Shown piece by piece: positions 3,496 to 61,960 of a DNA stretch of 64,000 nt; within the stretch, counting starts at the first letter, position 1, and each line of letters opens with the position of its first letter. Location of the stretch: NCBI GenBank assembly GCA_036252695.1, contig GCA_036252695.1_4122.1. One strand, written 5' to 3'. Made by a program: the position numbers and the translations under genes. The stretch is from a phage. The notes under the pieces were generated by a model, which was given only the letters and a program-made list of their open reading frames with translations, was not told where the DNA came from and did not search any database.

Positions 3496-3760
3496 AGTAC
3501 TTGTTGCTGAAACAATGAAGATGATTTACGATATCACGTCAGCACAGAATATGCCATATCCAACTAAGTCTTTATTGAGGACTGTGTATCTGGGGATAGT
3601 ACAGGAGTACTACAAATCCAAGCACAGAAGCATTATTAGTGTTTATCGTGATTATGAAAGGATTCGTATTTTATTCTGGAACAAGAATCGAGTACGTTCT
3701 GAATGTGATCTAGTAGATTTTAAATTAGAGAATCTTTATTGCTATAAACAGGGACAATAG
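3482..3760 (+). CDS. hypothetical protein
   Basis: ATG at 3482 preceded by AAGGA; reading frame of track ORF 3464..3760. Confidence 0.45.
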   Translation: MRTNEVLVAETMKMIYDITSAQNMPYPTKSLLRTVYLGIVQEYYKSKHRSIISVYRDYERIRILFWNKNRVRSECDLVDFKLENLYCYKQGQ

Positions 3761-3779
3761 TCTAATTCATGATATAATA
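3751..3779 (+). promoter_or_regulatory. sigma70-like early promoter (GGGACA -35, TGaTATAAT extended -10)
   Basis: gggaca, 16-nt spacer, TG-a-tataat; same architecture recurs at four other sites. Confidence 0.5.
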
Positions 3780-3818
3780 ATGGGTAAGGAACAATAATTA
3801 ACACAAGGAGTGTGTGAA

Positions 3819-4547
3819 ATGCTTGACCGTATCCGTTTCGCTACAGAGATGGCGAATGAATTAAACATGGCAAATTTCCAAATGTTAACATCAGTAATGG
3901 CTGAACATGCATGTGCTTATTCTGTAAGTGGTGTGCAGTGTGGTCAGGAGAATATGTTAGCAGATGTTTATAGTGAAGTACAAAGTAAGCAATATAGTGT
4001 AAAGACATATAAGGATAAGTTTGTTAGTCTTTATATGAACGAAGATATTGCCGAAGACCGCAAATTCACTGATTTTATTATTGAACGCCGAGTATCAGGT
4101 GTATCTAATCCTAATGCATCAAGCGATGAAGTTTTTGCAGAAGTACTGAAAGATATATACGAAAATGAATTAAAAAGTAAGAATCATTACAATGTACGTG
4201 AAACTAACACAGTGCTCTTGGGATATGATGAAGACGAAGAATACTATTATTTTCGTATGACTGAAGTTCCTTTTGAATACAAATCTCCATATACAACTAC
4301 AGTGAAAGAATTTACTGAAAAAAGTAAAAACTTTATGAAGCATGAAGGAAATCGTTGTAGTATAAATGGTTATGACGAAAATGGCATTCACATTTATGAA
4401 TGGGTTCACCCAAATTGTCAGACATACACTCGTTGCTTGAAAAAACGTTATAATTTAGAAGAGCATGAATCATTCTATTTTAAAGTTAAGAAGCAAGGTT
4501 ATACTCGCCCCGCCGATTCTGAATTGATGGGTATGATATATTTCTAA
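3819..4547 (+). CDS. hypothetical protein
   Basis: ATG at 3819 preceded by AAGGAG with 8-nt spacing; ~243 aa, downstream of the promoter. Confidence 0.6.
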   Translation: MLDRIRFATEMANELNMANFQMLTSVMAEHACAYSVSGVQCGQENMLADVYSEVQSKQYSVKTYKDKFVSLYMNEDIAEDRKFTDFIIERRVSGVSNPNASSDEVFAEVLKDIYENELKSKNHYNVRETNTVLLGYDEDEEYYYFRMTEVPFEYKSPYTTTVKEFTEKSKNFMKHEGNRCSINGYDENGIHIYEWVHPNCQTYTRCLKKRYNLEEHESFYFKVKKQGYTRPADSELMGMIYF

Positions 4548-4557
4548 GGAAACTTCT

Positions 4558-4839
4558 ATGGATTTTTATCTACACACATGGACATACGAACAATATATTA
4601 CATTATATCTTGAAATTATTAACACAGAACCTAGGTGTGGTTGTAGGTTCGCAGATATCATAAAAGAGTATGCTGACGAGTTCGAGTTTGTGTATCTTGG
4701 GTCTGATATATTTGTAAAAAGTGTAGGTAAAACCGGACGAATCACTGATATAGATTACGACACTGTTAGTGTGAATTTCTATGTTGATTTTCCTGATGCT
4801 GGCGTTGATGGTGTATATTGTCTTTATGAAATAATTTAA
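4558..4839 (+). CDS. hypothetical protein
   Basis: 93-aa ORF followed by a terminator. Confidence 0.5.
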   Translation: MDFYLHTWTYEQYITLYLEIINTEPRCGCRFADIIKEYADEFEFVYLGSDIFVKSVGKTGRITDIDYDTVSVNFYVDFPDAGVDGVYCLYEII

Positions 4840-4845
4840 ATTCTT

Positions 4846-4870
4846 AGGCCAGCGTTTGCTGGTCTTTTTT
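4846..4870 (+). terminator. rho-independent terminator
   Basis: ggccagc-gttt-gctggtc hairpin followed by a T-run. Confidence 0.5.
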
Positions 4871-4883
4871 CGCAGGTACAAAG

Positions 4884-5186
4884 ATGTTCAGTATAGATTT
4901 AATTAACAGTACTATCAAAATGTTGGCTGATTTGGTGAGACAATCCAATGGAACTTTATATCCATCAATGTATAAAATGTTTGACCGATACATCAAGGAT
5001 TGTAACATATCATTATATGGACTTGCTGTTGATATAGACGATTACTATGGAATTAATACTTCATATAAAACAGGAATTTTAATTGGTATTAATATAAAGA
5101 TGGGGTATTTACCTTATTACTGTATAGGATTACCAGATAATACTTTTGTAGAATATCCAGCCAGTACTATTAAATTAAGAGGATAA
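4884..5186 (+). CDS. hypothetical protein
   Basis: 100-aa ORF. Confidence 0.5.
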   Translation: MFSIDLINSTIKMLADLVRQSNGTLYPSMYKMFDRYIKDCNISLYGLAVDIDDYYGINTSYKTGILIGINIKMGYLPYYCIGLPDNTFVEYPASTIKLRG

Positions 5187-5193
5187 AACTAAA

Positions 5194-59662: not shown

Positions 59663-59675
59663 TGGAGATAAATGT

Positions 59676-59861
59676 ATGGAATATACAATATGTATAGTTA
59701 TATGTATCATATCCTTACTAGTCGGGGTTGGTGTGATGATTTATTGTGATGCAGAACCCAGTACTGAAGTAGGAACAACAATAACACTTAAACCTGGTGT
59801 TAAAGTTAATGATAATTATTGCTATGATCCAAACACTAATCGATATGAGATTTGTCTATGA
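59676..59861 (+). CDS. small membrane protein
   Basis: 61 aa with an N-terminal hydrophobic helix. Confidence 0.45.
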   Translation: MEYTICIVICIISLLVGVGVMIYCDAEPSTEVGTTITLKPGVKVNDNYCYDPNTNRYEICL

Positions 59862-60268
59862 AAAAGTTTGATATTAAACCTATTATTGATGCTATCGAAA
59901 TTAAATTAAAAAATACTAAAAAGCCAGATAGTACAGGTTTGTTCTTTAGTTTAGATAAAATGTATTATGAAACACACGTGTCAAGTTATGATAGAACAGG
60001 AAATCTCTTCATCCGTACATATAACATATTTTATAGTGAAGATGTTTTTATGATAGATATAAATCTGGATGAAGGTATAGTGTTGATGTATATTGAGGAT
60101 GTTCAATCCACAGAACAACGAAACGGGACTCTTCCTATTGCTGCTACAGAGGAAGAGTTTTTGCAATATCAGTTCATTGAGGATACCTTTGGTATTGACT
60201 TTGATACATATCAGAGTATAATGAGGGTATACGAACTTTATGAGGATTATGTGATTGGACGTTACTAA
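59852..60268 (+). CDS. hypothetical protein (duplicate pair, copy 1)
   Basis: 138 aa; C-terminal F.EDTFGIDFDTYQ motif shared with the next ORF. Confidence 0.5.
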   Translation: MSMKKFDIKPIIDAIEIKLKNTKKPDSTGLFFSLDKMYYETHVSSYDRTGNLFIRTYNIFYSEDVFMIDINLDEGIVLMYIEDVQSTEQRNGTLPIAATEEEFLQYQFIEDTFGIDFDTYQSIMRVYELYEDYVIGRY

Positions 60269-60677
60269 AATTCCAAAATTTAATGAAACGTTAAAGTACT
60301 TTGCTGAACACGAAATCAGTACTGAAAGACGTGGTTTGATTTCATACAATCATCATCGTGTTATGTACACTAATAATTTCCAGGGTACAGTTCGTATTAA
60401 ATTTCGTAATGCACTCGACGACAATGATGAATTGTTAATTTTACTACGAAAAAGTAAGATAGAATTGACATACGCAACTCACCATATTGAAAGTGAGTTG
60501 ATGTGGCACACACTATCAAAAAAAGAAGGGACATTACCAGTTGATGATAATGGACCGGAAACACTTGATCAGTACATGTTCATTGATGATACATTTGGTA
60601 TTGACTATTCTGCATATCAGTGTATACTAGCTATACACAAAAAATATTACGACCGTCTACGTGATAGATTAATTTAA
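60255..60677 (+). CDS. hypothetical protein (duplicate pair, copy 2)
   Basis: 140 aa; FIDDTFGIDYSAYQ motif. Confidence 0.5.
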   Translation: MDVTKIPKFNETLKYFAEHEISTERRGLISYNHHRVMYTNNFQGTVRIKFRNALDDNDELLILLRKSKIELTYATHHIESELMWHTLSKKEGTLPVDDNGPETLDQYMFIDDTFGIDYSAYQCILAIHKKYYDRLRDRLI

Positions 60678-60688
60678 TTGGAGGCATT

Positions 60689-60811
60689 ATGATTGCTATG
60701 TTAGAAGAAGATTGGGGTGTTTCCGAGCAAGGCACAGATGAATATGAATACCCAGAATACCAACCAAAAGGCTTCTGGGAACGTCTACGTGATTGGTTGA
60801 TGGGGGAATAA
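60689..60811 (+). CDS. possible small acidic ORF (40 aa)
   Basis: Below the track cutoff; GGAGG RBS; fills the gap before the CCA enzyme gene. Confidence 0.3.
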   Translation: MIAMLEEDWGVSEQGTDEYEYPEYQPKGFWERLRDWLMGE

Positions 60812-60812
60812 C

Positions 60813-61925
60813 ATGAAAAAGTATTTGGTTGGCGGTTACGTCCGTGACCGTTTAATGGGCATCCGTGCAAAAGACAAAGATTATGTCATTGTTGGTGCAT
60901 CCGAATCTGATCTTAAGTACTTGCAAAGTATTGGCTATAAGCAAGTAGGTAAGGATTTCCCAGTATATCTAAGTCCAGAAGGTAATGAACACGCATTAGC
61001 CCGTACTGAGCGTAAAACTGGTACTGGATATGGTGGCTTTGAAGTGGATACAAAAGGCGTAACACTAGAACAAGATTTGTATCGCCGTGACCTTACAATT
61101 AATGCAATTGCGTATGATCCAGTACTACAAATTCACATCGATCCATACGGTGGTAAAGCTGATATCAAGAACAAGATACTACGTCATGTTTCTGACCATT
61201 TTAAAGAAGATCCATTACGCGTGTTACGTCTTGCTCGATTTGCTACTCGTTATTCAGACTTTACTATCCATGAAAGCACTGAGGAACTCGCTATTGGAAT
61301 GGTCAATAGTGGTGAGCTAAATCATCTTGTTCCTGACCGTGTTTTTGTGGAATTCGAAAAATCATTTTCTGAAGAAAAGCCTTCAAAGTTCCTTAAGACG
61401 CTAAGTAAATTTGGTTATTACGAAAAGGTGTTTAATACATCTTTGACCAAAAAGAATTTAGACCTTATTGATTATATTTCAGATAACTGTACTGATGTAT
61501 ATAAACCATATTTTCTGTGGTCTATTCTTCTTGAAAATGAAGAAGTAAATAATGATTCAGTACTTAACGGTGCTATTAAAGTTCCAGTTAAGTATGTTAA
61601 ATTTAGTAATTATATCAAACGTTTCCGTGATGATATCAAAACATTCCGTAAAAAGACCCCTATTGAAATGGGTAATATTTTATTGGATATGAATATTAAA
61701 AATAACGGAGGTGAAGAATTCCTTTATAAAGTTTTGGAATACTTCATTTTGCGAAAAGAAATTGATTTAGAACTTGAAGATCTAATTATTAAAGTTTATG
61801 ATCGTTATACTGATGTTGAATTGCCTGATATTCAGCAAATGGTCAAAGATGGTGAACTTGAAACGTCAGAAATTCGTGATTTTGTTTGTGAACTTCGTTA
61901 CGAAGCAATCAAACAAATGTTCTAA
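60813..61925 (+). CDS. cca: tRNA nucleotidyltransferase (CCA-adding enzyme)
   Basis: Head-domain motifs GGYVRDRLMG, DKDYV and RRDLTINA, colinear with bacterial CCA-adding enzymes. Confidence 0.8.
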   Translation: MKKYLVGGYVRDRLMGIRAKDKDYVIVGASESDLKYLQSIGYKQVGKDFPVYLSPEGNEHALARTERKTGTGYGGFEVDTKGVTLEQDLYRRDLTINAIAYDPVLQIHIDPYGGKADIKNKILRHVSDHFKEDPLRVLRLARFATRYSDFTIHESTEELAIGMVNSGELNHLVPDRVFVEFEKSFSEEKPSKFLKTLSKFGYYEKVFNTSLTKKNLDLIDYISDNCTDVYKPYFLWSILLENEEVNNDSVLNGAIKVPVKYVKFSNYIKRFRDDIKTFRKKTPIEMGNILLDMNIKNNGGEEFLYKVLEYFILRKEIDLELEDLIIKVYDRYTDVELPDIQQMVKDGELETSEIRDFVCELRYEAIKQMF

Positions 61926-61932
61926 AAATAGT

Positions 61933-61960
61933 GGGACAAAAAACCAATAACTGATATAAT
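61933..61960 (+). promoter_or_regulatory. sigma70-like early promoter
   Basis: gggaca, 16-nt spacer, TG-a-tataat upstream of the Nudix gene. Confidence 0.5.

Follow-up and report, generated by a model that had tools for sequence, protein, structure and literature searches.

A GGGACA and extended -10 promoter class of Asteriusvirus jumbo phages, with an upstream box that appears to be read by a phage-encoded factor

To our knowledge, nothing is known experimentally about how the approximately 350-kb Rak2-like jumbo phages schedule their approximately 600 genes. The closest described promoters come from the analysis of Pectobacterium phage CBB, which predicted three classes in Rak2-like phages, namely RpoD-like promoters with an UP element, divergent RpoD-like promoters with the -35 element TGAAACG, and late promoters with ATAAATA, and which also noted a phage sigma70-like gene (PMC5259590). 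The "divergent RpoD-like" promoters (Promoter 1) are MEME predictions in CBB and in Cronobacter phage GAP32 (Abbasifar 2014, cited in PMC5259590). Table S6 of the CBB paper gives them as TGAAAC[G/A] or TGGAACG, N13 and TG[G/C/A]TATAAT, and includes a site before the gene for a gp55-like sigma (Porf_244; PMC5259590). The published CBB work neither ties the box to the phage sigma nor calls it lineage-specific (PMC5259590), and our literature search turned up no description of promoters in Asteriusvirus. Here we describe a related element that recurs in a phage DNA stretch of 64,000 nucleotides (nt) (contig GCA_036252695.1_4122.1, hereafter the window). It is composed of a GGGACA box, or a close variant, followed after 16 or 17 nt by TATAAT within an extended -10 element, TGATATAAT. 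We hold with moderate confidence that these elements are genuine promoters of one phage-specific class, of middle type, with a box that is read by a phage factor, most likely region 4.2 of a phage sigma.

By sequence comparison, the class is best described as the Asteriusvirus variant of the divergent RpoD-like promoters of GAP32 and CBB. We file it as a lineage variant rather than as the identical motif because its box is (T)G[G/A]GACA and not TGAAACG. The two have in common a G/A-rich box of 6-7 nt, 13 nt and TGnTATAAT, a dispersed location before DNA-metabolism genes, and orthologous targets: the tandem pair at gp32, the gp55-like late sigma and a non-coding RNA locus. They differ in the box, which is TGAAAC[G/A], TGGAACG or GGAATG there and (T)GGGACA or GAGACA here, and in the preferred n of TGn, which is G there and A in Asteriusvirus. 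Beyond the known class, our analysis adds evidence for a phage factor reading the box and, as a by-product, a conserved structured RNA.

The window belongs to Asteriusvirus, the 121Q/G17-like jumbo phages of E. coli: its nrdD region matches vB_EcoM_G17 and Sharanji at 100% identity and 121Q at 99%. The G17 record annotates terminators and no promoters. A preliminary description of the window had listed five elements, at 3751, 18952, 28187, 51184 and 61933. All five lie where it put them, each with exact TGATATAAT and with G/TGGACA 16-17 nt before TATAAT, and the downstream genes that it named are correct. Five was nonetheless an undercount, as the window holds at least eight sites and the whole genome of a relative about 15-20. 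The sites in the window, with the open reading frames (ORFs) and genes that follow them, are:

3751..3778, + strand: class promoter; GGGACA box 3751-3756 overlapping the stop codon of the preceding ORF, 16-nt spacer, TGA 3770-3772, TATAAT 3773-3778 (exact TGATATAAT); precedes a 242-aa ORF with ATG at 3819 (phrog_16105, function unknown)
11248..11275, + strand: intergenic class promoter with a variant box; GAGACG 11248-11253 overlapping the upstream stop codon, 16-nt spacer, TGATATAAT 11267-11275; precedes an ORF at 11307 (phrog_31862)
13497..13525, + strand: candidate internal promoter, of lower confidence; GGGACA, 17 nt, TGATATAAT; inside a PrpA/B-like phosphatase gene (13026-13784), 265 nt ahead of the next gene (13790)
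18952..18979, + strand: class promoter; TGGACA, 16 nt, exact TGATATAAT; precedes clpP (19014-19709)
25932..25959, + strand: class motif; GGGACA, 16 nt, GGATATAAT, with GG replacing TG ahead of the -10; in the 3' end of a Nudix-domain gene, 100 nt ahead of a cREC_REC-domain gene (26059)
28187..28215, + strand: class promoter; GGGACA, 17 nt, exact TGATATAAT; precedes a monocistronic unit for a highly basic 62-aa protein (28247-28435; phrog_24119, function unknown)
51184..51211, + strand: class promoter; GGGACA, 16 nt, exact TGATATAAT; precedes the non-coding RNA locus, which is ORF-free in the preliminary description
61933..61960, + strand: class promoter; GGGACA, 16 nt, exact TGATATAAT; precedes an apparently frameshifted Nudix gene (ATG 62002)

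The regular expression GGACA-N16/17-TATAAT has seven matches in the window, all of them on the + strand, while 300 dinucleotide-preserving shuffles gave a mean of 0.15 and a maximum of 3 matches over both strands. When TG is required, six matches remain against a shuffle mean of 0.01. The extended -10 alone (TGATATAAT) is found at 11 places where 3.2 would be expected. No enrichment in the window is seen for GGGACA by itself (15 occurrences, 14.1 expected), so the signal resides in the combination of box and -10. TATAAT is exact at all seven strict sites and TG is present at six of them. Moreover, in every GACA-N16/17-TATAAT of the window (n = 7) the base before GACA is G, and not the T preferred by sigma70.

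The genome-wide census was done in EC22.5-2, a relative of 352 kb that was assembled here and is 94-99% identical, and was anchored on every TATAAT. It returned three architectures:

Dense early-type class: 22 sites, 20 of them within a 20-kb region of tiny ORFs; aaaAGTAC-TTGCAA/CTTGCA-N16/17-TATAAT-gTTTTACATC, then a hairpin in the 5' untranslated region; extended -10 TG at 0/22
Canonical TTGACx class: 42 sites, with the -35 often inside a terminator hairpin; extended -10 TG at 8/42
xGGACA class: 16 strict matches, all on the + strand, from 97 to 343 kb; extended -10 TG at 14/16

The -35 of the early class can also be TTGACA (AGTAC-TTGCAA/TTGACA-N16-TATAAT-gTTTTACATC). One of the 16 strict matches, a TGGACA site at 42839, was reassigned to this early class on its downstream signature and missing TG. 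The whole-genome motif search that the preliminary description had proposed therefore gives 15 class members, all on the coding strand. TG is coupled to the GGACA box, as it occurs at 14/16 of the strict matches compared to 8/64 of the TTGACx/TTGCAA sites (p = 2e-8, Fisher test). The GGGACA class is distinct from the dense early class, and we rejected GGGACA as the general -35 of the phage, since the early region uses TTGCAA/TTGACA without TG. In the 13 members with a 16-nt spacer the information profile is bipartite, with T-GGGACA at -23 to -17 relative to the -10 hexamer, then g-TGa-TATAAT, and about 0 bits in the 13-nt stretch between them. The consensus is T-GGGACA, 13 unconstrained nt, g-TGa-TATAAT. 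Further intergenic extended -10 sites with equal spacing carry GAGACA, GAGACG, TAGACA, GGGATA or GGGAAR. A k-mer enrichment search detected no fourth promoter-like motif and returned ribosome-binding sites, pieces of the early class, TAAATA and the GGGACA class. Three Asteriusvirus promoter classes are thereby defined: early TTGCAA/TTGACA, GGGACA with extended -10, and late TAAATA.

We compared the sites of the window with those of TH47, a relative of about 85% identity (79-89% locally at the sites). Box and -10 are intact in TH47 over a scrambled spacer; at site 3751, for example, 7/13 spacer positions are changed. The variant GAGACG at 11248 is GAGACA in TH47, nearer to the consensus. The 25932 site is also kept, with conservation confounded there by coding sequence, and the region of 13497 has no ortholog in TH47. 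These comparisons suggest that both the box and the -10 are under purifying selection.

The location of the sites bears on whether they are promoters at all. With approximately 92% of the genome coding, five of the seven strict sites fall between genes or on a stop codon, and a start codon or the RNA follows 30-75 nt downstream of them. The element could instead be a binding site or a repeat with another role, for example in replication, in packaging or as the end of a mobile element. The two intragenic strict copies fit such a role, as does the overlap of one copy with an operator-like 25-bp palindrome. However, the orientation is always co-directional with the genes, nearly all of which are on the + strand in the window. 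In addition, the spacing from the element to a start codon, or to the conserved 5' region of the RNA, is fixed, units composed of terminator, promoter, gene and terminator are seen, and the bipartite information profile has exactly the sigma70 geometry. A function other than that of a promoter is very improbable.

To which factor the box responds can be approached through its variation between lineages, for which we compared orthologous promoters in IMG/VR and GenBank loci. Tandem promoters at gp32 are positionally conserved in every Rak2-like lineage compared and always retain TGnTATAAT. Their boxes are:

121Q and A4: GGGACA
TH47: GAGACA and GGGACG
7t3, Hallingskeid and related contigs: GGGACA and GGGATA
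RaK2: TGAACA
GAP32, CBB, and Serratia and Yersinia phages: GAAACG, GGAATG and GGAACR, with TGG (including TGAAACG and TGGAACA)
XaC1: GAAACA

The same variation is detectable at other targets. The clpP promoter has TGGACA here, compared to TTGACA, 17 nt and TGtTACAAT in the RaK2 ortholog. The non-coding RNA promoter of Yersinia and Xanthomonas phages is GGAACA or GGATCG, N13, TGGTATAAT, located after a terminator. This succession of terminator and box-N13-TGGTATAAT at distant RNA loci is independent evidence that the class acts as a promoter. The preferred n of TGn is also lineage-specific, being A in one set of lineages and G in the other. Since the box changes genome-wide in concert while the hosts share sigma70, a co-evolving reader encoded by the phage would be required. 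From this pattern we strongly infer that the box is read by a phage-encoded factor. The series of lineages provides ready-made specificity swaps for the study of -35 recognition by sigma region 4.

One alternative is that these are plain extended -10 promoters of host sigma70 with a tolerable 4/6 -35, which would form an early regulon from the start of infection with no phage reader; common descent, or a preference for -35 elements of moderate strength, would then account for the shared GGGACA. There is indeed much in the element that resembles an E. coli sigma70 extended -10 promoter. TGnTATAAT is exact, the hexamer 16-17 nt upstream shares GACA with TTGACA, GGGACA and TGGACA, at normal spacing, agree with TTGACA in 4-5 of 6 positions, and a generic sigma70 scan scores the class sites 10/12. 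Extended -10 promoters can work without contact to the -35, so that a perfect TGnTATAAT should suffice, and the RaK2 clpP ortholog has the canonical TTGACA. Nevertheless, where the preference of sigma70 for T is strongest, at hexamer positions 1 and 2, the class systematically has G, and all seven GACA-N16/17-TATAAT sites of the window have G before GACA. Consensus TTGACA/TTGCAA elements exist in the same phage and are used in a separate early class without TG. The box varies by phage lineage and not by host, and shifts together at many sites between genera (GGGACA, TGAACA, TGAAACG, GGAATG), although enterobacterial sigma70 stays the same. GGGACA as a plain sigma70 -35, which is how the preliminary description had presented it, leaves this change unexplained. 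The lineage-specific n of TGn is a further difficulty, and dissimilar flanks and spacers make descent from a duplicated cassette unlikely. We therefore regard plain sigma70 recognition as a minor rival and as improbable.

In the reading that we favour, with a phage-encoded reader of the box, the most likely candidate is the RpoD-like sigma of the phage. It is favoured by an apparent co-variation between its region 4.2 helix and the box, and by the lack of any AsiA or MotA match in single-sequence homology searches. This 321-aa protein of the sigma70 family has regions 2, 3 and 4 (Pfam Sigma70_r3, 2e-9; r2 and r4, 7e-5, just below the gathering score; phrog_351, 6e-60; PDB RpoD, 7e-17). Its gene lies at 332205-333170 of EC22.5-2, preceded by canonical TTGACA-N17-TATAAT promoters. 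The protein (gp167 in 121Q, WNN14470.1 in Sharanji) has been annotated in Sharanji with no analysis of promoters, and in the literature we found no experiment that assigns the phage sigma to a class of promoters. Orthologs were collected with tblastn, as an IMG/VR protein scan with the sigma reached only 121Q, and the region 4.2 helix was aligned to sigma70 residues 583-592. Helix and box pair as follows:

Asteriusvirus alleles (57-74% identical overall): helix RSSxHRKYS, invariant; box GGGACA
7t3 and Hallingskeid: H-R pair kept; box GGGACA
RaK2: H-Y; box TGAACA
GAP32 and XaC1: K..S-R; box GAAAC(G/A)

The association is perfect over 6 clades and 3 box states, but these represent only 2-3 independent changes. 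RaK2 is nearer to Asteriusvirus than 7t3 and Hallingskeid are, by identity of both gp32 and sigma, and yet it differs in helix and box.

The sigma gene is itself mosaic within Asteriusvirus. BF17, TH47 and Ecwhy_1, which share approximately 87-97% DNA identity with the window, carry sigma alleles that share only about 59% identity with the 121Q type. Their 4.2 recognition helix is identical to that of the 121Q type.

The main rival is sigma appropriation, which we consider unlikely, albeit a serious possibility. Host sigma70 would read TGnTATAAT through regions 2 and 3, and a DNA-binding phage activator that is not a sigma would read the box, as MotA does with AsiA in T4; the RpoD-like sigma of the phage would then serve another set of promoters. 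The parallel with T4 middle promoters is close. They combine a sigma70-type -10, often with TGn, with a phage-specific box that replaces the -35. They also drive replication and late sigma genes, like the gp32 and late sigma targets here, and stand between early sigma70 and gp55-type late classes. Other observations favour appropriation, namely that the -10 and its extension are perfect and do not vary among lineages, with a mere 35% or so of identity between the phage sigmas of different genera, that this sigma lacks the sigma70 residues reading TG and -12, and that extended -10 promoters are in general independent of -35 contact. On the other hand, the MotA box, (a/t)(a/t)(a/t)TGCTT(t/c)A, is centred on -30 with a 12-nt spacer, while GGGACA occupies the canonical -35 position with a spacer of 16-17 nt. 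T4 is also without a full RpoD-like sigma, which Asteriusvirus encodes. With genuine T4-type queries, neither phmmer nor tblastn detected AsiA or MotA in the complete relative genome (best E = 0.65), in searches with single sequences that remote analogues could escape; AsiA matches in the phage collection come from T4-sized genomes. On these negative searches we rejected T4-type appropriation as identified by homology. Furthermore, there is no recognisable regulator near the sigma gene (no Pfam domain among the 10 neighbouring ORFs), and no other enriched bipartite motif is left for the phage sigma to read.

Several observations weigh against the phage sigma as reader of the box, or against the promoter class itself, in addition to the two intragenic copies and the reach of the single-sequence searches. 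The co-variation of helix and box is confounded by phylogeny, with so few independent changes. Across lineages the -10 does not vary, and it has the textbook form of a sigma70 extended -10. W433, W434, Q437, T440, H455 and E458 are the sigma70 readers of -12, -10 and TG. The phage sigma keeps Y430, F427 and K426 (sigma70 numbering) and carries the replacements W433S, W434S, Q437M, T440Y, H455Y and E458V. Its region 2.4 varies by lineage (IYM versus IRQ) without a matching change in the -10. Altered -10 and TG residues, together with variation in region 2.4 over an invariant -10, fit a -10 that is read by host sigma70. Finally, we found no transcript 5' ends, binding or in vitro data for any Asteriusvirus in the literature.

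With the phage sigma as the most likely reader, the following mechanism can be proposed. Host core RNA polymerase would initiate approximately 7 nt downstream of the -10, with TGnTATAAT supplying most of the binding energy and the box at the -35 position being read by a co-evolved phage-encoded protein. This reader would most likely be region 4.2 of the phage RpoD-like sigma, made from its canonical TTGACA promoters. As the extended -10 is perfect, host sigma70 may give the class basal activity as soon as infection begins. With three motif classes for three sigmas (host, RpoD-like and gp55-like), a simple cascade fits, in which host sigma70 would act at the early promoters, the phage RpoD-like sigma at GGGACA and the gp55-like sigma at the late TAAATA promoters. 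The proposal resembles phage-sigma-dependent middle promoters such as those of Bacillus phage SPO1 gp28, in that an early-made phage protein of the sigma70 family would redirect the host core to a class with its own -35 box. SPO1 middle promoters differ in having a non-sigmaA -10, whereas the -10 here is indistinguishable from the host consensus. The promoter classes and a lineage-specific box, set against a constant host sigma, make the cascade a testable model, in which the switch would be the RpoD-like sigma of the phage or a different phage factor.

More tentatively, the Rak2-like phages may form a natural series of sigma-promoter specificity. The 4.2 helix of the orthologous sigmas would have drifted (H-R, H-Y and K..S-R at the equivalents of sigma70 584/588/589), and the box of dozens of middle promoters per genome would have changed in concert (GGGACA, TGAACA, GAAACG/GGAATG). 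With the host-type extended -10 kept, host sigma70 would fire first and the phage sigma would boost. The same class would drive a previously undescribed structured RNA of approximately 515 nt, conserved from E. coli to Xanthomonas phages.

The genes downstream of the class indicate when it may act. Its targets include ClpP, the cREC_REC protein, the 62-aa basic protein, the gp32 single-stranded DNA-binding protein (two tandem sites), the tRNA cluster, a PD-(D/E)XK nuclease, a primase-like protein, a ClpA/B-like ATPase and the approximately 515-nt non-coding RNA. The gp55-like late sigma (phrog_12791, phrog_234) is also among them, with its EC22.5-2 promoter at 217429. These are pre-replicative functions and not the tiny-ORF early set, and members of the class lie scattered through the part of the genome devoted to replication and metabolism. 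From its targets, it probably switches on replication-stage genes rather than the earliest ones. The preliminary description had proposed one co-regulated early regulon. Strand, position, retention of both boxes over a scrambled spacer and recurrence at orthologous genes of other genera make a single co-regulated set very probable. The term "early" is doubtful, because a different and much denser early-type class exists in the tiny-ORF region and because the GGGACA class precedes pre-replicative, middle-type functions, like those of T4 middle genes.

The promoter at 51184 led directly to a conserved structured RNA, which illustrates the use of the motif in annotation as a mark of transcription-unit starts. 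The features of this unit are:

51218..51731, + strand: conserved structured non-coding RNA of approximately 515 nt, predicted to be transcribed from the 51184 promoter; the former ORF-free locus
51709-51731, + strand: intrinsic terminator AGAGAC-ttaatt-GTCTCT-T6, which ends the RNA

The locus is conserved at the nucleotide level in jumbo phages of Yersinia (fHe-Yen9-04) and Xanthomonas (XbC2) and in other IMG/VR contigs, while the surrounding 10 kb has no other match to the Yersinia and Xanthomonas jumbo phages. Indels between relatives are of 1, 5 and 43 nt and are not multiples of three. The terminator is conserved as well, with stem sequences that differ by lineage and pairing that is kept. 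RNAalifold on five sequences gave 19 pairs with compensatory double changes. Rfam yielded no family at the gathering threshold or with E <= 1, and searches for tRNA and tmRNA were likewise negative. Given these indels and compensatory base pairs, we rejected as a gene an 87-aa ORF on the minus strand (51544-51807). Current records leave the locus blank or fill it with tiny ORFs. A direct repeat, GTCCAAAATTTGAGAA, occurs inside the RNA at 51502-51517 and 51655-51670. The 43-nt hairpin insertion that holds the first copy (approximately 51476-51518) is Asteriusvirus-specific and looks like a partial internal duplication. Another non-coding locus may exist just downstream of the sigma gene, where a stretch of approximately 1 kb (EC22.5-2 333200-334300) has no plausible + strand ORF and only spurious-looking ORFs on the minus strand.

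The preliminary description had also noted hairpins at two of its sites. The one at 28187 is significant, while that at 51183 is not (z = -1.2), and none is found at three other class sites. The features around the 28187 promoter are:

About 28181..28206, + strand: near-perfect 25-bp palindrome or hairpin, GUAUGGGACA..UACGUCCCAUAC, written TGTATGGGACAT-T-ACGTCCCATACA; -16.7 kcal/mol, z = -4.5
About 28539..28570, + strand: strong intrinsic terminator closing the 28187 unit, also an ARNOLD terminator in the G17 record

The palindrome (28182-28206) overlaps the promoter box, directly follows the phoH stop codon and has no U-tract. It is perfect in EC22.5-2 and 121Q and is retained in TH47. It could be the 3'-end hairpin of the phoH mRNA or an operator. 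As it is the only significant hairpin, we rejected hairpins as a feature of the class and consider this one site-specific.

Three relaxed matches in the window are listed with low confidence:

7637..7664, + strand: possible weak member; GGAACA, kept in TH47, 16 nt, TGCTATAAT; inside the RNA ligase A gene
56616..56643, + strand: GGGAAA, 16 nt, TGCTATAAT; directly ahead of an ORF start
59508..59535, + strand: TGGACG, 16 nt, TGTTATAAT; inside ORF 59267-59662

As regards the other promoter classes, the early array spans 31-50 kb of EC22.5-2 and 1-25 kb of G17 (sequence L002), with approximately 20 copies in 20 kb before tiny ORFs, and its 5' untranslated hairpin is GGGGAGAA..TTCTCCCC. Fusions of terminator and promoter occur at 43969-44005 of the window and at 43892, 45306 and 46588 of the same G17 sequence, on the - strand. 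In these, TTGACG or TTGACT sits in the hairpin of an intrinsic terminator, and the T-run forms the spacer to TGnTATAAT or TATAAT. The T4-late-like motif (C/A)TAAATA is enriched 5-6 fold upstream of EC22.5-2 genes and is presumably read by the gp55-like sigma.

The Nudix gene downstream of the 61933 promoter seems frameshifted: ATG 62002 opens a Nudix-like N-terminus (MRYSCGIIFYRDGQILIGH) that goes on in another frame, in ORF 62033-62434. Compared with G17 and Sharanji, the window differs over approximately 2.5 kb in the tail-fibre/nucleotidyltransferase region (approximately 46000-48700) and by a further 285 nt or so somewhere within 4.5-19 kb.

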